From: Escherichia coli
GTDB lineage: Bacteria > Pseudomonadota > Gammaproteobacteria > Enterobacterales > Enterobacteriaceae
Reading direction: 5' to 3' (one strand)
DNA: 64,000 bases
Assembly (NCBI RefSeq): GCF_002854065.1
Contig: NZ_CP024154.1
Part shown: positions 36,704-63,269 of the stretch, in pieces
How the letters are laid out: each line of letters opens with the position of its first letter
Numbering within the stretch: the stretch's first letter is position 1
The notes under the pieces: generated by a model
The model's input: only the letters and a program-made list of their open reading frames with translations
Told to the model about the DNA's origin: nothing
Databases searched by the model: none
Program-made: the position numbers and the translations under genes

Positions 36704-37281
36704 TCTTTTTTCTCCGTTTTCGGGGGATACAGGATGTCTGGTACGCGATGACTGAGTGATTCCGGCAGCGGAGCCAGCGGGAAACACTGGAAGCGGCGCG
36801 TGATCCATCCCTGACGGTTACGGTTATCGATGAGCGTGAAGGTACGACGCTTCACGCGTTTCAGTGTCGGGGTGTCGCTTTCCATGACCGGCCAGTCTCC
36901 GGCTGTGAGTGCCGGTGTGCCGGGGACATCCGGCCACAGCCAGGTGTTGTCAGACATCAGCGCAGTGAGTGGTGCGGGCAGAAGCCAGTGAATGACATGC
37001 TGTATATCAAAAGGCGGTCGCTCCGGCACGTTAACCTGCCAGGTGGCCGTTGTTATCAGCGTGCCTGTCTCTCCGGGCAGGGCCAGGCGAATACCACTCA
37101 TCTCCCCGTCAGCCCGTCTGTCACTGGCAAAAATGACCCGGGGATTGGGGGACGGTCGCAGTGTGAAGCAGGCGGACGGCAGGGTGAAGCTGAAACTGTC
37201 ACCGTCCACGCGCAGTGTTTTCAGGAAGACCTGTCCCCGGGCAGGACGCCGGCAGCGGGGGGTGATATGAATGCTGTACAT
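36661..37281 (-). CDS. TraV-like protein
   Basis: 206-aa ORF, start coupled to the traU stop. Confidence 0.5.
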   Translation of the reverse strand: MYSIHITPRCRRPARGQVFLKTLRVDGDSFSFTLPSACFTLRPSPNPRVIFASDRRADGEMSGIRLALPGETGTLITTATWQVNVPERPPFDIQHVIHWLLPAPLTALMSDNTWLWPDVPGTPALTAGDWPVMESDTPTLKRVKRRTFTLIDNRNRQGWITRRFQCFPLAPLPESLSHRVPDILYPPKTEKKECKDNLQPHCLHSL

Positions 37282-40200
37282 CAGAGGTTATATCCCTGCT
37301 TACGGATGAGTTCTGCTGCCAGCTCATGGATGACGTTTTCACTGTCATGTGTGCGGGCGCGGTGTTCTATCAGTGAGGTGGCTGAACCCCGGGGAAAGTG
37401 TTCGGCCAGGATCTGGCGTGCCCGCAGTGACCCCACCTCCTGCGTCAGCGCACGTCGCAGGGCGCTGTCTTTAGGAGAGGAGTTCAGTGCCCACAGCTCC
37501 AGTGGACCGAGGGTGAATTTCAGGATCCGGGCCAGCGTGCCGTTTTTTACACGGAACACAGCCAGTACCGGGACACCGCTGCCGTCCGGTGCGGCCCCTT
37601 CCGGCATTTTCAGGAAGCGCCGCAGTGTGACTTCCGGGACGCCAAAGTTATCCCGCAGGAACGGAATTTCGTCAGGGCGGTAACGCAGCAGCCACAGGGT
37701 GTTGGCGGATTTGAGCACGGCCGGAGGATAATGCTGCAGCAGCTGGGTGCTCAGCACCGTGCGTATCCCGAACTTACGCTGCTCCAGCTCCTGGGTGTCC
37801 AGGGCTTCCCAGATGAAGTTGATCCCTTTTGCATTGTGCAGTTCGTCATAGACTTTGGTCTTGACCTCCTGATCAAGCTGTTCAATGCGGCGGAAAATCA
37901 CCTCATGGTAGCGTGGGTCGAGATTTTTCCGTATTTCCTCCTGATACTGCGGCAGGACAAAATCCCCGCCGGCGATCTGCCCGGCCAGCAGATACATGAT
38001 ACCGGTGCGCAGACGTCCGGCAGGTGTCTTGTCCCCGGCCACATTGTTCAGATCAACGGCGACCACGCGGGTGTCGGGGCTGAGCATAAACCGGGTACAG
38101 CCGGACATCATCGGGTAGTCACTGTGTCCCTGATCGAGGGCACGGCGGATGTAGTCCAGCAACCGCTCTTCCGAGTTATCACGCTGAACGGTGCCGAACA
38201 CATCCCGGATGGACGGCTGTCCCAGCAGGGCGGACATTTCAGCCAGCAGGGGCATGGCCTGGTAGTGTGCCCGCTGGGCGGCGGGGATATTCCCTGCAAT
38301 ATGCAGCATGTCCCTGATTTCAAACCAGGTGGCGGCATTCCACCATCCGGCATCATGTTGTTCAGCGATGCCGCTCTCTTCCAGGGCGAGATCCACCAGG
38401 GGTTCCGTACCTGCGCGGTAAAGTCTGGGGTTATTCTCGCCATATTCCCGGAAGGCCAGGTCCACCAGGCTGCTGATGATTTGCCGGGTGTCGCCGGGAT
38501 TACAGGGCTGACCGGTGCCGGTATCCACACACAATGCACAGAGGACGGAGACCATGAAGTTCTTTTCCGGTGTGACGGGTTTTCTGGCCCCGTACATCAC
38601 ATCAAACAGGTTGCGGGTGTGGTCCGGGTCATTACTCAGAATGATCCCCACGGCTTCGTCCTTTCTCTGCTCAGGCAGGCTGTCACGGATAAGCTGTACC
38701 AGTCCCTGTGCACTGAATCCCTTGTCGATATAGGCAATGAAAGGGAGATTCTTCTGGGCTGAGGCTATCTGGATCTCCGACAGTGCGTTGATGAGTACCG
38801 ATTTGCCCAGACCGGGTGCGCCGGGTGTCAGCTCCGTGTGCTTGTTCTGTTGTGATGACGCCAGCGCCACCTCCCATGCAGAGCCGTCTTCGGTGTGCAT
38901 CATCAGATTTCCCTGTCCCCGCCAGACAGAGCCTGCCCTGTTCAGGGGAAACAGGGAAAGGGCGTGTGAAAGGGGCGGGTAAAGGGGGATCGGGCCGGAG
39001 CTGTGGGAGGCTGCCAGAACCGTGTTCACCCAGGCACGTCTCGGATCACCGAAGGTTGTGGTGGTGCCGCATACCCCCCAGCCTTCCAGCGCAGATTTCA
39101 GGAGAGCCTGGTTACGGGTACAGACTTCCCGGCTGTTTCCCCATGTGGTGGCAACAATGGTCATGATACAGACCGGATCATGCTTGTTGATGTCATTCAG
39201 CATCATTACCGAGTCATACATGGGCCGGAGAGGAGGAATAAAGCTGCTGTAGGTCAGCAGGGTTTTCTTGACCCCCAGCGCCTTCATGCCGTCGGGCATC
39301 AGATCCATCCGGATACGCCAGGGGATTGCACGGGGCACATCCCTGACCAGCTGGTTGAATGTCCGCAGATTCTGAGGGGGCAGGGTAATGGCGACCATAC
39401 CGTGCCAGAGCTCACCGGCCTGAATCAGGCTGCCGTGTGTTTCAGGCTGTGTGGTGAATAACTGCAGATTCAGCGACGGTGCGTGGAATACAGAGGTATC
39501 CCCGCCCTGTCGCCAGCCGGCAGGACGGGCATCTTCGGGCAGATGAGGCTGCCATACTGCCGGTGTACTGTTGCGCTCCAGTTGGCGGCGGATTTCCCGT
39601 CCCACTTCATGGATATCCATCAGGCGAATCAGCAGGCCATCAGAATCATGTGTCAGGGCCTGCTCCAGCGTGTCCAGTAAGGCGTCATGCCGTATTTTGA
39701 GGGCGGAAAGTGTCCAGCGCCAGGGATCCTGCGCAAAACGGGCTGGCGGAGCGTGTTCAGCTAGTTTCCTGACACGGGTCTGATGGTCCTTGCGATCGGT
39801 CCGGCTCAGCAGTTCTTCAGAGCTCCAGACGGTCAGCCAGCAGCGCTCCCGGACAAGCCAGGGGGTGAGTGTGGTGACTTTTTCATCCAGGACGTCCTGA
39901 AGCAGGATCCCCGTGCGTGCGATGGATTTTCGCTGGGGTAAGAGCATGGCTTCGATTTCATCCCTTCCACGCTCCGGATCGCGTTCGAAAACAAAACTGA
40001 TTTTGTGGCCGGAATTTTTCCAGGCCGTGTTCATTCGCTCAGCCAGTGCTGCAATCAGTGACTCCAGTGTCCCGGGGGCCGTCTGGTCCGGGTTTTCATC
40101 CATTTCTTTCAGGGCACCGCTGATTTCAAAGACGGAAAGGTAATACCCCTGTTTTGTGGTGGCAATGTAGGGGGCTTTCAGCCAGGGGCGGCGTTCGCGG

Positions 40201-40349
40201 TCCTGCTGGTCCAGACCGATGACGGTGTGCAGATCACAGTAATCGGGGAAGAATGCGGAAACGGAATACCGTGACAGGGTACTGATACAGTCTTCAATGG
40301 CAAAAATAATGCGGTTGATATTCATGGCAGAGGTGGCTCCGGAAGACAA
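37281..40349 (-). CDS. traU: TraU conjugation ATPase (DotO/IcmB-like)
   Basis: 1022 aa; Walker A GAPGLGKSVLINAL. Confidence 0.85.
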   Translation of the reverse strand: MSSGATSAMNINRIIFAIEDCISTLSRYSVSAFFPDYCDLHTVIGLDQQDRERRPWLKAPYIATTKQGYYLSVFEISGALKEMDENPDQTAPGTLESLIAALAERMNTAWKNSGHKISFVFERDPERGRDEIEAMLLPQRKSIARTGILLQDVLDEKVTTLTPWLVRERCWLTVWSSEELLSRTDRKDHQTRVRKLAEHAPPARFAQDPWRWTLSALKIRHDALLDTLEQALTHDSDGLLIRLMDIHEVGREIRRQLERNSTPAVWQPHLPEDARPAGWRQGGDTSVFHAPSLNLQLFTTQPETHGSLIQAGELWHGMVAITLPPQNLRTFNQLVRDVPRAIPWRIRMDLMPDGMKALGVKKTLLTYSSFIPPLRPMYDSVMMLNDINKHDPVCIMTIVATTWGNSREVCTRNQALLKSALEGWGVCGTTTTFGDPRRAWVNTVLAASHSSGPIPLYPPLSHALSLFPLNRAGSVWRGQGNLMMHTEDGSAWEVALASSQQNKHTELTPGAPGLGKSVLINALSEIQIASAQKNLPFIAYIDKGFSAQGLVQLIRDSLPEQRKDEAVGIILSNDPDHTRNLFDVMYGARKPVTPEKNFMVSVLCALCVDTGTGQPCNPGDTRQIISSLVDLAFREYGENNPRLYRAGTEPLVDLALEESGIAEQHDAGWWNAATWFEIRDMLHIAGNIPAAQRAHYQAMPLLAEMSALLGQPSIRDVFGTVQRDNSEERLLDYIRRALDQGHSDYPMMSGCTRFMLSPDTRVVAVDLNNVAGDKTPAGRLRTGIMYLLAGQIAGGDFVLPQYQEEIRKNLDPRYHEVIFRRIEQLDQEVKTKVYDELHNAKGINFIWEALDTQELEQRKFGIRTVLSTQLLQHYPPAVLKSANTLWLLRYRPDEIPFLRDNFGVPEVTLRRFLKMPEGAAPDGSGVPVLAVFRVKNGTLARILKFTLGPLELWALNSSPKDSALRRALTQEVGSLRARQILAEHFPRGSATSLIEHRARTHDSENVIHELAAELIRKQGYNL

Positions 40350-40549
40350 AATAAATCGCGGGCTGCAACTGTATTCAAATGGGAACGCTATGCGTGTAAG
40401 TTGTGCTGAGTGAGTATTGCTGTCAGGATGTTTTTTGCTGAGAATAGTGTAGTTTCCCCGGCAGGGAAATTTAAAGTCATGATTTGTCCTCCAGGTTATG
40501 TGTAATGTTTTCCGTTTTTAATATGTTTCTTGGGAAATGAGGAAATAGA

Positions 40550-41095
40550 GTGAAGGCTGAAAATAAAATATTAAATCTTTTTCATGCGACAACAATGAGC
40601 AGAGGCCTGCAAATAATAAAAGATGGGAAAATAAGAACTGATGCTCCTTCTGTTATATGCTGGTCGTTAGAGACGACACCAGGATGGATTTATTTATCGG
40701 ATCAACTTGATAATGCGGTGCATTGGGGGAATAAAATAGCATGCTTTTCAAAAGATGAATTATTTTTCTATATTTTCAGAGTTCAGGTTCAGGAAGAAAA
40801 TTGTTATCCTGATACAGATGATTTGCAATATGTGTCGTGGTTATCTCCTGAGGAGGCAGAAAACACAGACCTGTATACATGTCTTTCTCTTTGCCATTCC
40901 TGCCGAACTGACAAAGAACTGTATACAGGTTGTGAAATATCAGATTATGCAGTCCTTCCTGCAACAACACTGTATACTGACAATTCAGGACATCCTCAAT
41001 ATGATATTGTTAATACGCTTAAAAAACATATAGGCAAAGATGAGTATAATCAGTATGAATCACTTCGTCAGCGTATTGAATGGGTTTGTTTATAA
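40550..41095 (+). CDS. AT-rich orphan ORF (181 aa, GTG start) on the strand opposite to the tra operon
   Basis: SD GAGGAA 6 nt upstream of GTG 40550; markedly lower GC than flanking tra genes; no recognised motif. Confidence 0.45.
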   Translation: MKAENKILNLFHATTMSRGLQIIKDGKIRTDAPSVICWSLETTPGWIYLSDQLDNAVHWGNKIACFSKDELFFYIFRVQVQEENCYPDTDDLQYVSWLSPEEAENTDLYTCLSLCHSCRTDKELYTGCEISDYAVLPATTLYTDNSGHPQYDIVNTLKKHIGKDEYNQYESLRQRIEWVCL

Positions 41096-41451
41096 GTGAT
41101 CTTATTAAGGTGTACAACAATAGATTTTCTTCTTTTGTTTTGTATAAATACCGGAGGAATATAAAAGAAACGGAGACTGCAGAGACAGAGATGAAGTTGT
41201 TTTCCCCGTTTCCTTAATGAAAATTCAGTCAGGGGGGTGGCCGGATAATTATGCCGCGCACTTAATTCCCTGTTGAACTGAAGTATTCCGGCAATATTCA
41301 GCAGTACGCCGGCCAGCCTGCCGTCATCATCCCGCAGGAAACGACGGAGTAGCCGGTGCTCTTCTTTGGCGGTACTGTCAGCTTTTCCGGCCAGGTGTGC
41401 GTGGATGAGTGTTATAAGCGTCTCCGGGGATATGCGGTGAATTTTCATCAT
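41068..41451 (-). CDS. hypothetical tra-region protein (127 aa)
   Basis: ORF only; 3' end runs into AT-rich DNA. Confidence 0.4.
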   Translation of the reverse strand: MMKIHRISPETLITLIHAHLAGKADSTAKEEHRLLRRFLRDDDGRLAGVLLNIAGILQFNRELSARHNYPATPLTEFSLRKRGKQLHLCLCSLRFFYIPPVFIQNKRRKSIVVHLNKITYKQTHSIR

Positions 41452-41852
41452 TCTTCTCCTGATTTTGTCGGGGGTACACCCGGATAAATAAACTGCTGGC
41501 GGCGAATGAAAAAATCACAGAAGGGCATATCCGGTAATTCCGGGAGACCGGACACGGCAATATCCATCCATGAGAGATAGTTATCGACGCTCACTGTGAC
41601 GGTGATGCTGTTATGGGTACGGGATCTTTCATGAATTTCTGCAGCCAGAAAGAGCAGCCAGCCGCCGTTAAATGCCGGGTGGCGGAGAATGAACCGGGCA
41701 ATCTCTTTTTCATCTCCGTCAGGCGGAATATCGTCAGTCAGCGTCCGGATAATAAAGCGCCGGAATGCATCTGCGGAAAACTGATATCCGGCAGTGAGGG
41801 TATCCATTTTTTGTTCCTCTGTCAGTTGGGGCCGGCAGAACGTCACCGGCAC
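41448..41852 (-). CDS. hypothetical tra-region protein (134 aa or shorter)
   Basis: ORF coupled to the downstream gene. Confidence 0.4.
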   Translation of the reverse strand: MPVTFCRPQLTEEQKMDTLTAGYQFSADAFRRFIIRTLTDDIPPDGDEKEIARFILRHPAFNGGWLLFLAAEIHERSRTHNSITVTVSVDNYLSWMDIAVSGLPELPDMPFCDFFIRRQQFIYPGVPPTKSGEE

Positions 41853-41861
41853 CGGTGTGTG

Positions 41862-42680
41862 TCACATGACGTACTTTTTATCAGGAAACGAATCCGGCAG
41901 CAGAATGAGCGCCACCCCGTCCATTTTCTCCCTCAACGTTTTACGCTGTGCCGGCGGCCAGCGGCGCAGGGCATCAGCAAAATCCGCCGGACGCCAGGTG
42001 CGGAATTTCTCCTCAACGGCCAGACGGTTCTGTACCAGGGCATTCAGGACTGCCCGTCCCTGCCTGACCCGCTGACGGTTATCGCTGAAAATCTCCTGCA
42101 GTGCCCGCGCATTGAGGGCAACCACCGAGGCCGGATGCAAATCGGGGAGCCAGACCATCACTCCCTGTGCGGCAGCATAGCCGTTCAGACAGTGCCAGGC
42201 ATGGCAGAAGGCACAGAGATGAAAGGGCGGGCCTTCCGGCTGCAGCAGGTCACTTTCATTTTCGCTGAGTGCATCCGTTGTGACGATTTGCGACTTTTCC
42301 ACATGACGCAGGGCCAGTCGCCTGGCCGACAGGCGGGCCTGTGCCAGGGACCGCTCCGCATCCTGCAGGGTTCGGGTGTGTTTCTTTTTTTCGTCAGCGT
42401 TTTCCGGTACCGGACGTTTTTTCAGGCGCATCACCCGGGTGAGGTTTTTTTCCAGCAGGACGACCGTATCCCGGCAGGTGTCAGCCATCTGCTGTAATGG
42501 CCATGAATCTTCCAGAATGAAGCGGTGGGTGACGGTCCTGCGACAGCAGGGGCAGCGTCCCTCTGTTGAGAGCACTGGCGGTGGTAACAGGGCTTCACCG
42601 CTGAATACCGTGTCCGGTTGCGGGAGCGGGAAAAGCCATCGTTCCCGGACCGGGGCGATGAGTGGCGGGGTCTTTTTCAT
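41862..42680 (-). CDS. TraT-like protein (by position), Cys-rich
   Basis: 272-aa ORF. Confidence 0.45.
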   Translation of the reverse strand: MKKTPPLIAPVRERWLFPLPQPDTVFSGEALLPPPVLSTEGRCPCCRRTVTHRFILEDSWPLQQMADTCRDTVVLLEKNLTRVMRLKKRPVPENADEKKKHTRTLQDAERSLAQARLSARRLALRHVEKSQIVTTDALSENESDLLQPEGPPFHLCAFCHAWHCLNGYAAAQGVMVWLPDLHPASVVALNARALQEIFSDNRQRVRQGRAVLNALVQNRLAVEEKFRTWRPADFADALRRWPPAQRKTLREKMDGVALILLPDSFPDKKYVM

Positions 42681-47978: not shown

Positions 47979-50900
47979 TCATCGGCCGGGGCTGTGGGAT
48001 TGTGCCTGTTGCAGAGTTTTTTCCTGCCTGTCCTCCGCCTTTTGGCTGTCAGACCACTCTTTCCAGGTCTGCTCAAAACCCAGAGAGCGGAAAAGCTTGT
48101 CCGGTTGCTCTTCCGGTTTGTGGATGGCGGCAAACAACGGGGAGTCCTGTTGCTTCAGGTGAAACTGCATTATTTGTGGGGACGGACGCTGATGATTATT
48201 CTCATCATGGTTAACAGCTTCACCGTAACCGGCAAACTGCAGACCGTTATCCGTCAGGGCATTGATAACCAGCTGACGGTTGTCAGCTGACGGGGTGGCC
48301 AGTGCCGGGTAAAGGGTGCCGTTCAGGCGGACCACGCCCTGCAGATGATCATCTGCGCTGTGGACCAGCAGAAGATTCAACTGACGATTGTCCTTATCGG
48401 CAGAGGCGATGGCTGGTATCAGTTCATTGGGGGCATTACCAGCGAGGGGGAGTCGCATTGATTGATCCTGAGGTGCTGATGCAGGTTGCCTGTCTTCACC
48501 AATGTACAGATTATTGGGAGGATTTTTGGGGGAGCGAACTTCCTGCATTATCTGTGGCCAGTGTTGTTGCATCTGTAACATCACCTGGCTGAATGTTGCC
48601 ATCGGAAACTCCAGGGTATGCTGACCCGCATGAGGTTGGTCATTATTAACGGTAATGCCGTTACTGACCGGGGTTATGGCCCAGATATTACGGATACGAT
48701 CCCGCGTTTCACCGGACAGCCGGAATGTTTCTCTCGCCTGCAGTGTCAGTGTGACGGGGTCACCCTTCTGATGGTTTTTGACCAGTTCTTCCAGGCCGTT
48801 TCCCCAGTATTCCCGTTTGCCACTGCGGTTGGTGAGCTCCACAAAAAAGCAGCGCCCTTTTCCGGGCGCATACTCTTTTTCTCCGTAGTTTGTCAGGACG
48901 GCAGTCACACTTTCACCGGGGCTGAGCTTGCCGGGCGGCTCTTCCACCGGTGTGTCGGGTTGCTGCGGCTGTGCACTGACAGGGGCTTTTTCTGGCGCAG
49001 ACGACGGGGCGGCGGGGTGTTCCGGTCTGTCGGCCCGGGGGGCTTCAGCTTTTGCCGTGACCGGCGCTTCCGGATGCGGTGTTTCAGCCGTACTGCCTGC
49101 TGTTTGTTCAGCCTCTGCCTTCGGTGACACAGGGGGGGCCGGTTGGGCCATTGTTGTCTCTTCCGGTGACTGGCGGTTGAGTTCCGGCGTGGGTCTGTGG
49201 GTGACAATGGCATCATGCGCCATCTCTTTTTCCTTGCGGAGTTTTTCCAGTGCTGCCCGCTGGGCCGGGAGTTTCATGCGAACCTTGATGTCGTATTCGA
49301 CAATCAGCTGCATGGCTTTTTGCTTAAAGGCATCACTGCCGGTCAGCTCGATAACGCCGCCATAGAAGTTGGTGGCCACAGCAAGGGCAGCCAGGACCTT
49401 TTTGTCATCCGCGCTGGCGCCATCCACCATTTCGAGACAGTAGAGTCTGTCCAGGAAGGCGGGTTCACCGTCAACGCTGTAGAGCGCAGTCCTGTCGGGA
49501 AACTCTTTGTGTGTAAGATTTTTAAGGATCTCGTCCAGGTTGTGCCGCTGCGGACTGTCGGGACGGCGGGGTGCAAAGATAATCGTGTCCGGTTCCGCTG
49601 ACGATGTGTCTTCCGGGCTGGTTTCCGGTGGTGATGGTGGTGCGACCTCCTCTGTTGCTGTTTCAGCCTCCGTGGGCTTTTTCTCCTGAATAACGGAAGG
49701 TTCTGAGGTGCGTGATTTCACACCGGTCAGAAAACGGCGCAGACGGCTGAAAAGCGATGGCGTTTCAGGGCGGGCTGCTTCATTCGCTGTGCTGGTCTCA
49801 GTGGCGGACACAAGACGCTCTTCCTGCAGTTTATCTTCAGCCGTCGGTTCAGCGGTGGCCTGCCGGACTGGCTGAGTTTCTGCAGGTTCAGAAGGTGAGG
49901 CTGTTTCTGCTGTGCCGGTGTTGTGAACAGCAACCGTGGCATCGGCATTGAGCTCCTCAGCGGGTGCGTTCCTGTTGTCATCGGTGATGTCAGAGGAGTG
50001 CTCTGCGCCGGTCTCAGCGGCAGACGCAACGCTCTTTTCCTGTGCTTTATCTTCTGCCGTCAGTTCAGTGGTCACCTGCTGAACTGGCCGCATCCCGGCC
50101 GGTTCAGAAACTGTATTTGTCTCCGCGTTGTCGGTGTTGTGAACAGTGGGGGCCCCCGGAGTGTCAGCGTTGAGATCTTCCGCAAATGCGCTCCAGTCGT
50201 CAGCGCTGGCCATGGAAACCTGCACTTGTTCTTCAGACTGCGTTGTGGTGGTGTGCTGTGTCCCGGCCGCGTCGGAGAGGGAGGTTTCCGGTGTGTCTTC
50301 ACTCCGGGGATGTTCTTCTGCCTGCGTGCTCTGGTTGTCAGCGGTGGTGGCAGAGGCATTTTCTTCACCGGTATCAGCGGTAGCCACAGAGGCATTTTCT
50401 TCTCTGGTATCGGCAGCGGAAACAACGTTCTCGTGTGGTTTATCTTCTGCGGTCGGTTCAGTGGTTGCCTGCTGCACGGACTGCATCCCGGCAGGTTCAG
50501 GAAGCGTTCCTGTTTCTGCTGTGTCGCTGTTGTGAGCGGTGTCTGTACCTGTGGCGTCTGTATTGAGGTCTTCCTGGTCGCCAGCGGTAGGCACAGAGGT
50601 ATTCTCTGTGCCGGTATCAGCGGCAGACGCAATATTCTCCAGTGGTTTATCCGGGGATAACGTCTCCGCAGTTACTGATTGCAGGGATGCATAGGCGGCA
50701 TAGTCATCTTCATATGCCTGGTTTTCTGTATCGTCGGAGTGGGTGTCATAAGGCGTATCCTGTGTCGCCAGCTCCGTTTCCGGGGCTGTGCTCTGTCTGT
50801 TTTCAGGGGACATTTGTGGCTTCTCATCTTTTACCGGTGTGAATATCAGGTTGTCGATCACGACAGCCTCACGATGGTCGGCAGTGTCACTGTTGGGTGT

Positions 50901-61760: not shown

Positions 61761-63269
61761 TCAGTGCAGCAGCGTATAGCTGTCCTCGTCTACAGGGGAT
61801 ATGTAATGCGCAGCCAGCGGATCGACCTGACCACTGTTGATTTTGCCCAGCAGGTGCTGATTTCGTGTCATACCGCCGAGCTCCCGGTGCCAGTAGGTTT
61901 TTGCCTCAATCCGGCCTTTTTCCCGGTAAATCTGGAAAAACTTCGCATCCGGGGAAATCACTTCTGCAATGACGGTCCGGCCGTTCACTCCACGCCAGCA
62001 GTGTGGGCAGCCGTTATGGTTACGAAGATACACGGCATCGGGCTGGCAGAAGTTTTCCACCAGGCGTCGTTCTTCATCCGTCCGGGAGCTCTCCACCTCA
62101 TGCCAGGGGAGGCGGCAGTGGGGACATATCACCTGAACCAGACGCTGGCTGAGCAGGCCGATAAATAACTGCGGATCTGCAATCATCCTTGCCTGAACGC
62201 CCTCCATTTCCAGACGCTCAAGAATATTTATCGGGTCGTTAGCATGAAGGGTGGTCAGCATCAGGTGACCGGTCATGGCGGCTTTTATCGCCGTGATGGC
62301 GGAGGCATGGTCACGTATCTCCCCGTTCAGGATAGCGTCAGGATCAAGGCGCAGGGCGGACTTAACAGAATCGACCCAGCCCTGAGCGGTATCCATAACG
62401 GCCGTCTGAATTGCACCGGGGATACGCCCCTCTGGTGGTGATTCTATTGTGAACAGACGTCGCCGGGGGAGCAGGATCCCTCCGGTATCGTTGAAGCCAT
62501 ACTGTTCCAGATAGGCGGCAGAAGCCGTCCTCAGCGTGGTGGATTTTCCGGAACCGGTGGGGCCAGAGAGGATCACGATGCCCTCCGGTCGCTGCAGCAT
62601 CCTTCGGACAGCGCGCTCCTGCTCAGGGTGATACCCCAGCATACTGAATGTCGGTATATGCTGACTGTCATCCTTGATCAGACGCAGTACGGCATAGAGT
62701 CCGCCCACACACGGATAGTGGGAGTAGCGCGCACCAAACAGTCCGGCCAGTTTCAGGAATCTTTCAGCCAGACGGGCATCCTGGGGGACACCGGGATCAA
62801 ACTGTGTTCCCTTTATGACGTCAGTCATTCCGGAATAGGTGGCCCCCAGTAATTCCAGCCCCTCATCTTTTCTGACGATATCGAGCAGCTCCAGCTCTCC
62901 GTGGACACGGGCCTCCAGATACGTGAAATCCGTACTGTCACGCCCCGGCGTGATGTGAAGATCTGAGGCGCTGAGGGTGGCCGCATGGCTGATATACCCG
63001 AGCATTTTTTGCTGTACGGGGTTAATTCCGTTTTCCACCCCGGAAATGACCGTCTCCTGCCTGAGTCGGGCGATCACATCAAGTGTGGTGAACTCAAACG
63101 GGGATACTTTACCCGGATAGCGGGAGCACAGGCGGGTCAGATAATCCTGGACGGCACGAAGGTGTTTTTTTCCTTCCACCACTCTGACATGAATTTGTCC
63201 TGTTTTATCTGTATCAACAACCACGTATTCCAGAATGTCATCAGGTGGCTGGTCTGCAGGTGCCAGCAT
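61761..63269 (-). CDS. pilQ: PilQ pilus assembly ATPase (GspE/PilB family)
   Basis: Walker A SGPTGSGKSTTL; tetracysteine motif (CPHC...CPHC). Confidence 0.85.
   Translation of the reverse strand: MLAPADQPPDDILEYVVVDTDKTGQIHVRVVEGKKHLRAVQDYLTRLCSRYPGKVSPFEFTTLDVIARLRQETVISGVENGINPVQQKMLGYISHAATLSASDLHITPGRDSTDFTYLEARVHGELELLDIVRKDEGLELLGATYSGMTDVIKGTQFDPGVPQDARLAERFLKLAGLFGARYSHYPCVGGLYAVLRLIKDDSQHIPTFSMLGYHPEQERAVRRMLQRPEGIVILSGPTGSGKSTTLRTASAAYLEQYGFNDTGGILLPRRRLFTIESPPEGRIPGAIQTAVMDTAQGWVDSVKSALRLDPDAILNGEIRDHASAITAIKAAMTGHLMLTTLHANDPINILERLEMEGVQARMIADPQLFIGLLSQRLVQVICPHCRLPWHEVESSRTDEERRLVENFCQPDAVYLRNHNGCPHCWRGVNGRTVIAEVISPDAKFFQIYREKGRIEAKTYWHRELGGMTRNQHLLGKINSGQVDPLAAHYISPVDEDSYTLLH

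Follow-up and report, generated by a model that had tools for sequence, protein, structure and literature searches.

The ADP-ribosyltransferases (ARTs) of polyvalent proteins carry an active site composed of a histidine in strand 1, a tyrosine in strand 2 and an aspartate in strand 5 (Iyer et al., 2017, PMC5512222). These H-Y-D ARTs are the commonest protein-modifying domains of polyvalent proteins; they are found in conjugation loci and are predicted to be delivered into the recipient cell (Iyer et al., 2017). We describe here a putative solo counterpart, encoded in a 64,000-nucleotide stretch of Escherichia coli DNA (contig NZ_CP024154.1) that is hereafter called the window. The window matches plasmid pRHBSTW-00321_4 (CP056607.1) at 100% identity; this plasmid is conjugative and of the IncK2/Z, MOBP and MPF_I types. 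On the minus strand, four genes follow each other in the order traT, p119, p126 and traU, where p119 and p126 denote neighbouring genes of 119 and 126 amino acids. Between p126 and traU, the plus strand carries an open reading frame (ORF) of 181 codons (40550..41095; GTG start, TAA stop). Its product, hereafter ART, is predicted to be a stand-alone protein with an ADP-ribosyltransferase fold.

The H-Y-D configuration is common to this protein and to the polyvalent ARTs (ART-PolyVal, PF18760; Tox-ART-HYD2 clade). Moreover, both kinds of protein have their genes in phages or in the conjugation loci of plasmids or conjugative transposons, and for both a role as conflict effector is predicted. However, ART is a free-standing protein of 181 residues whereas the polyvalent ART is a domain in a giant multidomain protein, and the ART gene runs opposite to the transfer operon, at a long distance from the leading region. 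The reading favoured here, on the basis of sequence comparison and structure prediction, is that the ORF encodes a functional, small, single-domain, NAD+-dependent ART serving as a plasmid-borne conflict enzyme. Taken as a whole, this statement remains tentative, with a probability of about 0.45.

A profile search of 1.84 billion representative proteins retrieved 174 relatives, 70 of them at E ≤1e-10, and almost all 160-200 residues long. An alignment of 68 sequences was used for motif counts and for structure prediction with AlphaFold2. Four predicted active-site residues stand out, namely H12 (65/68; codon 40583-40585), Y48 (67/68; 40691-40693), D88 (68/68; 40811-40813) and D90 (67/68; 40817-40819), all on the plus strand. 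Further conserved positions are T14, T42, A56 and W178. The family motifs L-[YF]-H-[GA]-T, G-[YFW]-[VI]-Y-L-[TS], A-x-[YH]-[YW]-G-N-K, L-x-P-D-x-D-E and S-x-R are all kept in the window protein. A first-pass annotation of the same DNA had seen no recognisable motif in this ORF, a view that the H-Y-D signature and the predicted ART fold contradict. No domain fusion was found in the family; the longest relatives (200-247 residues) have no added domain in the alignment.

With the 68-sequence alignment, the AlphaFold2 model reaches a predicted local distance difference test (pLDDT) score of 95.0 and a predicted template modelling (pTM) score of 0.90; with only eight close sequences, pLDDT falls to 57 and the model is unusable. 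The model displays the split beta-sheet of the ART fold, with His12 in strand 1, Tyr48 in strand 2 and the invariant Asp88 after a strand hairpin. A Foldseek search of the AlphaFold database (AFDB) matched the 99%-identical A0A075MAE3 together with relatives named DUF3990, PARP and DarT, whereas the matches in BFVD were all distant relatives with the ART fold, for the most part phage G paralogues. These results lead to the conclusion that, as far as sequence and model can tell, the ORF encodes an ART that stands alone, belongs to the H-Y-[ED] clade and has an H-Y-D site.

The protein differs from the named families of that fold in several respects. UniProt names A0A075MAE3 a DUF4433 domain protein. 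Nonetheless, the window protein has no match to the DarT profile (DUF4433, PF14487) at E ≤10, and none of the 68 relatives has one at E ≤0.1. Besides, the acidic residue of DarT is a glutamate, whereas the window family has an invariant aspartate in P-D-x-D-E. The likeness to the PARP and DUF3990 families (H-Y-E clade) is carried by the relative P0092, whose LYHGT motif aligns with LWHGS of PARP1 (H862) and whose G-x-YF aligns with GIYFAD (Y896); several AFDB neighbours also bear the names DUF3990 or PARP. However, the match of P0092 to the Pfam PARP model (PF00644, E 1.1e-6) spans only model positions 51-120 of 199, that is the N-terminal half, and the window protein itself stays below threshold. 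In addition, the window family lacks regulatory or helical subdomains and has Asp in place of the catalytic Glu. Weak Pfam matches among the 68 relatives include one with DUF3990 (7.8e-4) and one with PF18760 (E 0.009); P0092 matches PF18760 at E 0.62 and the window protein does not match it. In PHROGs, the sole match is phrog_13493 (function unknown, E 2e-4). A search of PDB sequences with the family profiles gave nothing significant, the best hit being a chance-level match to the LFHGT motif of Tpt1, and tblastn against 50,697 phage records returned no match to ART. Literature searches gave nothing specific on ARTs as plasmid anti-defence factors or on this protein. The family comprises about 174 representatives, with no curated family model and no studied member.

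The islet between traT and traU

The ART gene starts with GTG, as do its orthologues in loci L005 and L006, and a Shine-Dalgarno (SD)-like GAGGAA (40539..40544, plus strand) can be read 5 nt ahead of it. In identical plasmids, the ORF is labelled by NCBI as a hypothetical protein (WP_001390888.1 / QLW14246.1). These start signals, as well as the 181-codon length, had been correctly recorded in the first-pass annotation, and the ORF listing and the sequence agree with it. The AT-richness it reported is also borne out, with a GC content of 0.34-0.38 over 40350-41250 against 0.55-0.63 in both flanks. For the ORF itself, GC is 0.361 and GC at third codon positions (GC3) is 0.258, as compared with 0.58 and 0.673 for traU. 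The annotation had placed the ORF between traT-like and traU genes on the minus strand; the orientation is right, but two intervening small genes were not mentioned. Downstream on the plus strand lies p126 (41068..41448, minus strand), whose 3' end overlaps that of ART by 28 nt, and then p119 (41448..41807, minus strand), the first gene of the low-GC islet. Both are of unknown function, and neither has a match in Pfam, NCBIfam, PADLOC or PHROG. The interval is bounded upstream by traT (41862..42680, minus strand, 272 residues) and, on the other side, by traU (37281..40325, minus strand), which encodes a DotO/IcmB-like ATPase of 1014 residues and diverges from the ART gene.

Homologues of ART (41-72% identity, 173-183 residues) occupy the same place, in the same orientation, in four more MPF_I elements, represented by loci L005 (5001-5525), L006-8 (5001-5522 in L006), L009-10 (6001-6537 in L010) and L018 (4521-5057). 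In all five MPF_I lineages, ART is on the plus strand of a minus-strand operon and overlaps the tail of the p126 orthologue by 6-28 nt. At the orthologous loci, ART lies 56-282 bp from the next upstream gene, the spacers cannot be aligned, and 0-2 extra genes precede traU. Across three lineages, identities are 71, 54 and 41% for ART, 59, 46 and 31% for p126, 61, 46 and 33% for p119, and 54, 75 and 62% for TraU, so that the divergence of ART tracks that of p126 and p119. The p119 orthologue of L018 is still recognised at 37% identity (E 9e-23). Since orthologues share the site in at least five diverged MPF_I lineages and diverge in step with their neighbours, the comparisons indicate that ART is an old resident, repeatedly lost, and not a recent arrival. 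The ORF is far beyond chance, with homologues, a conserved motif set and a ratio of nonsynonymous to synonymous substitution rates (dN/dS) of 0.17 in comparison with the 72% orthologue; when the other three orthologues are compared, synonymous sites have reached saturation (proportion of synonymous differences, pS, 0.77-0.89). ART therefore behaves in these comparisons as a real gene under purifying selection.

The low GC content is itself conserved. In every lineage, GC3 of p119, p126 and ART is below that of traU and traT (0.26-0.51 for ART and 0.67-0.84 for traU; 0.42-0.57 for p119 versus 0.66-0.84 for traT and traU). Because low GC3 persists though synonymous sites between lineages are saturated, the base composition of ART has survived for far longer than amelioration should require. 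It may have been maintained by selection for AT-richness, or the gene may have been replaced repeatedly from an AT-rich pool. The three genes p119, p126 and ART together form an old low-GC accessory islet, of which ART is the last gene, in a slot of some I-type conjugative plasmids (MPF_I, with a type IVB secretion system, T4BSS). Hence, of the idea of an acquired cargo gene of deviant composition put forward in the first-pass annotation, the accessory, non-core-Tra character holds, whereas a simple or recent insertion does not.

The distribution of the segment supports the accessory character. A 3-kb region around the gene has megablast matches in 449 PLSDB plasmids, and the ORF segment is present in only about 74-75 of these. 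It is found in 0 of about 1,400 IncI1-type plasmids. Such counts differ from those of a known Tra component conserved in all related backbones, the outcome which the first-pass annotation had named as speaking against its proposal. Among 5,426 complete E. coli genomes, 77 contain the segment at ≥99% identity, on plasmids only, never on the chromosome, and once per genome. Alignment with pTMSA1088, pPK8261 and pLH50 places the approximate limits of the variable segment at 40346..41060. At this position, IncK2/Z plasmids devoid of ART carry about 150 bp of unrelated sequence, and homology resumes at the ribosome-binding region of traU and at the stop codon of p126. The ART-plus and ART-minus forms are two alleles, not the products of a clean insertion. 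Flanking direct or inverted repeats of the variable segment are not present. Insertion by a transposon or insertion sequence (IS) was considered and rejected, in view of the lack of flanking repeats or IS hallmarks and of the position of every copy read (L001, L021-L024) between traU and p126. In two ART-minus plasmids examined, p126 is 91.3-93.7% identical to that of the window. Over PLSDB, p126 occurs in 230 plasmids, 73 at ≥95% identity and 145 at 90-95%; 73 is also the number of ART-plus records, although the identity of the records was not cross-checked. These p126 identity classes point to an old dimorphism of the ART-plus and ART-minus forms.

The interval as a whole is even more variable. 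In IncI1 and IncI-gamma/K1 plasmids, traT directly precedes traU with an 89-nt spacer, and p119, p126 and ART are all missing. A Shigella IncK2/Z plasmid whose TraU has the same protein accession holds unrelated genes of 208 and 94 codons in the slot. ISEcp1-blaCMY-2-blc-sugE is found there in IncK2 CMY-2 plasmids, in agreement with the position described for ISEcp1-blaCMY-2 in these plasmids (PMC5350095). The slot of L005 also holds a gene for a PLD-like nuclease and a 235-codon gene, and that of L018 a 206-codon gene. With contents this varied, the interval between traT and traU is a hypervariable slot for cargo in I-complex plasmids. Most IncK2/Z plasmids lack ART only, whereas IncI1 plasmids lack the whole p119-p126-ART islet. 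About 155 plasmids have p119 and p126 without ART, while in MPF_I plasmids ART is never found without p119 and p126. The two small genes may be partners of ART (antidote, adaptor or regulator), or the pattern may merely reflect a nested history.

Possible roles of ART

In the favoured reading, ART would use NAD+ to attach ADP-ribose to a macromolecule, either protein or nucleic acid, in the cell that harbours the plasmid or receives it. Because its gene has its own start signals and is oriented head-on to the tra operon, its expression would be separate from that of the transfer genes. The level is probably low, given that the gene starts with GTG, is AT-rich and faces convergent transcription. 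As to which side the conflict is aimed at, we prefer an effector acting on the host or recipient, as a possibility still short of probable. Such an effector would help the plasmid to establish itself or to persist, and would correspond to a free-standing version of the H-Y-D ARTs that polyvalent proteins carry as domains. The preference stems from the resemblance of the family to a solo relative of the polyvalent ARTs and from its genomic contexts, most of which are conjugation or mobility modules and not defence islands.

Among these contexts, a relative of 28-35% identity is encoded on a plasmid of Rahnella sikkimica (CP019065.1; L011, 6001-6549), between a pilM-like gene and the PilN secretin gene of the thin-pilus operon. 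There again the gene is antisense, with a 23-nt tail overlap, and this is a second, independent antisense layout in a conjugation operon. The gene next to it is unrelated to p126, so that p126 was rejected as a universal partner. In Firmicute conjugative elements, relatives from Paenibacillus and from metagenomes are found immediately downstream of the gene for topoisomerase III. One relative belongs to an integrase/relaxase element, another is a chromosomal orphan, and a third is found in a 205-kb phage-like Bacillus plasmid, among small co-directional genes including YopX and ParB/Srx.

Several observations weigh against the favoured reading. No Pfam, NCBIfam or PADLOC model is matched by the window protein, and ADP-ribosyl transfer by this 181-residue protein is an activity predicted from sequence and model. 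The putative role of D88 as catalytic acid is deduced from its invariance, from strand order and from its position after the strand hairpin. A long distance separates the gene from oriT and the leading region (window positions 3.6-11 kb for ardA, psiB and ssb, and 16.5-19.6 kb for nikAB), which would imply a late entry into the recipient, unlike typical plasmid anti-defence genes. Its orientation opposite to the tra genes gives no obvious reason to expect joint expression with the secretion machinery. The asymmetric association with p119 and p126 in MPF_I plasmids, like the bona fide defence-island relative described next, would fit a defence toxin with its antidote at least as well. Finally, on the chromosome of Paenibacillus sp. 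481 (L013, 4938-6513), a relative is located in a defence island, 32 nt downstream of a CAP12-PCTIR TIR/AbiTii-domain gene, with which it may form a two-gene defence pair; the island also holds a Lit-like peptidase U49 gene and an AbiJ/Abi_C gene. More generally, we infer rather than show that ART is catalytically active, what kind of target it has, which way the conflict runs and how the gene is expressed.

The alternative that survives best is a toxin of defence or abortive infection (Abi). According to this explanation, ART would be a latent toxin that stays silent because it is expressed at a low level or because p119 and/or p126 neutralise it. Upon entry of a phage or of a rival element, it would modify DNA, RNA or an essential protein with ADP-ribose, in the manner of DarT and CmdT, and thereby protect the plasmid-bearing population. 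Points in favour are the DarT-like fold, the relative found beside a TIR gene, a design suited to low expression, and the occurrence of p119 and p126 without ART but, in MPF_I plasmids, never of ART without them. However, no PADLOC model is matched by ART, p126, p119 or TraT. Neither a DarG-type macrodomain nor an ARH, NADAR or other ADP-ribose hydrolase gene is annotated beside ART, whose neighbours are traU and p126, or anywhere else on the identical plasmid, which sets the locus apart from DarTG. The candidate antidotes p119 and p126 have no recognisable domain and were not found beside family members outside MPF_I plasmids; in fact, no conserved partner gene emerges from ten family contexts, and most of these contexts are within conjugation or mobility modules. 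The tail-to-tail overlap of p126 and ART recurs in all MPF_I lineages, but the two genes are convergent and not co-transcribed, contrary to those of a toxin-antitoxin operon. A defence toxin is nearly as good an explanation as an effector, although, taken by itself, it is rather unlikely. The toxin, Abi or exclusion factor imagined in the first-pass annotation is therefore a live option, ARTs being a superfamily rich in toxins and conflict effectors, even if a host- or recipient-directed effector is preferred here.

A more specific explanation makes ART a substrate of the T4BSS itself. The protein would be made in the donor from a promoter in the divergent region that it shares with traU, injected ahead of or together with the DNA, and would then modify a defence protein or nucleic acid of the recipient. 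The products of p119 and p126 would possibly act as adaptor or chaperone, and hand-over to the T4BSS would occur as for the Sog primase. If true, I-complex plasmids would have their first enzymatic anti-defence effector, and the location of the islet inside the secretion operon, and not in the leading region, would be explained. In a variant of this scenario, p119, p126 and ART would constitute a three-gene toxin/antidote module, and the persistent low GC would reflect selection for xenogeneic silencing. The scenario is considered distinctly improbable.

Another explanation is a non-catalytic ART fold that binds NAD+ or an ADP-ribose-derived molecule, acting either as a sponge for an immune signal or as a T4BSS subunit similar to IcmQ of the Legionella Dot/Icm system. 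IcmQ likewise has an ART-like fold and is encoded within a T4BSS gene cluster. However, the IcmQ layout, with an N-terminal helical region binding membranes and IcmR and a C-terminal ART-like NAD+-binding region, is not that of the window protein, and this explanation is considered very improbable. Least probable of all is a small-molecule ART inactivating an antibiotic or a toxic metabolite like the rifampin ADP-ribosyltransferase Arr, that is a resistance cargo gene, since neither the protein nor any of the 68 relatives matches the Arr Pfam model, the family is found in conjugation modules, phage-like plasmids and a defence island instead of integrons or resistance islands, and the host plasmid has no other resistance gene.

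The spacer before traU and its 30-codon ORF

The divergent spacer between the starts of traU and ART (40326..40549) measures 224 bp, with a GC content of 0.42. It presumably holds the ART promoter and the 5' leader of traU. No consensus sigma-70 site is present within 40326..40549. The closest plus-strand match (40282-40310) is located inside traU, within its first codons, and is directed at the ART gene. Another promoter-like site, on the minus strand at the 3' end of ART (41043-41071), points towards traU; a transcript starting there would be fully antisense to the ART mRNA. In number, the promoter-like sites of the region are not above chance (6 versus 3.3 +/- 1.9 expected). SOS control of ART was considered and rejected, as there is no CTGT-N8-ACAG site near the gene. 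Over the whole window, such sites (≤1 mismatch) number 39, against 22.8 +/- 4.5 in shuffled sequences, none of which reaches 39; the sole exact site is at 61780-61795. Within the coding region of ART, an imperfect inverted repeat (40869-40889 / 40910-40930; 21 nt, 86% complementary, arms 20 nt apart) overlaps a direct repeat, ACA[CA]AGA[CA]CTGTATACA[TG]GT, that encodes the repeated peptide D/E-L-Y-T. A known RNA element was also rejected, with no Rfam match at E ≤1 in 39800-41800.

On the minus strand of the spacer, a 30-codon ORF (40388..40480) starts with ATG at 40480 and is preceded, 6 nt upstream, by GGAGGA (40492-40487). The first-pass annotation had pointed it out, and the ORF and its SD motif are indeed present in the sequence. 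It had also suggested that the ORF may be a leader peptide. Translated as such, or as a translational ramp, the ORF would control traU across a long untranslated spacer. In the ART-plus allele, the tra transcript crosses about 740 untranslated nucleotides before traU, and the combination of a good SD, a suitable spacing and an ATG is in keeping with this proposal. Furthermore, an ATG ORF of at least 30 codons with an SD-like 5-mer is found in only 1.7% of random 300-nt sequences of the same composition. The layout is locally unusual, yet a few such cases are expected by chance in a 64-kb window.

Other data speak against it. The ORF is inside the allele-specific segment and is absent from ART-minus sister plasmids with identical or near-identical traU. 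It is not conserved in the orthologous loci L005 (72% orthologue), L006 and L009, and there is no room for it where the spacer is 56-86 bp. Among five related plasmids, the ORF shows two polymorphisms, the single-nucleotide polymorphisms (SNPs) 40407 (Q25L) and 40465 (P6S), both of which change the amino acid. Since it stops 62 nt before the ATG of traU, coupling to traU is not expected. Between the ORF and traU, no terminator-like site was found and the RNA fold z-score (0.32) indicates no excess structure, hence no attenuator; no Rfam match was obtained for the region. A role as leader peptide is therefore unsupported, and we regard it as most improbable, although the ORF itself may be translated in view of its unusual SD-ATG layout.

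Some observations concern the neighbouring genes. The longest ORF of traU could start at TTG 40349 rather than at the annotated ATG 40325; the annotated start is favoured because CCGGAG, ~11 nt before it, is kept in both alleles. Likewise, the longest ORF of p119 could start at GTG 41852 (134 residues) instead of the annotated 41807 (119 residues). Further away, the Sog primase gene (window position 47979 onward) is annotated in a sister record with LPD7 (large polyvalent-protein-associated domain 7). The plasmid would thus already code for one protein of the polyvalent type, a class whose delivery into recipients has been predicted.

Implications for I-complex plasmids

Plasmids of the IncK2/Z type and others of the I-complex are major vehicles for blaCMY-2 and for genes that encode extended-spectrum beta-lactamases (ESBLs) in E. 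coli from food animals and humans. An accessory gene kept by selection in their transfer operon, and predicted to code for an enzyme, likely affects the range of recipients, the resistance of the host to phages or rival plasmids, or the cost of the plasmid. The enzyme class and the theme are already known, but the family is uncharacterised and the antisense placement of ART in type IVB transfer operons is unusually stable. The family also recurs in conjugation modules of Proteobacteria and Firmicutes. In addition, the locus poses an evolutionary puzzle, as the low GC3 of ART has been kept beside high-GC3 neighbours despite saturated synonymous sites. The ART-plus and ART-minus alleles, carried by nearly identical backbones, offer a natural isogenic comparison which makes the role of the gene directly testable. 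Finding the target of ART would extend the short list of bacterial conflict systems based on ADP-ribosylation, which comprises DarT, CmdT, AcrIF11 and Alt/Mod.

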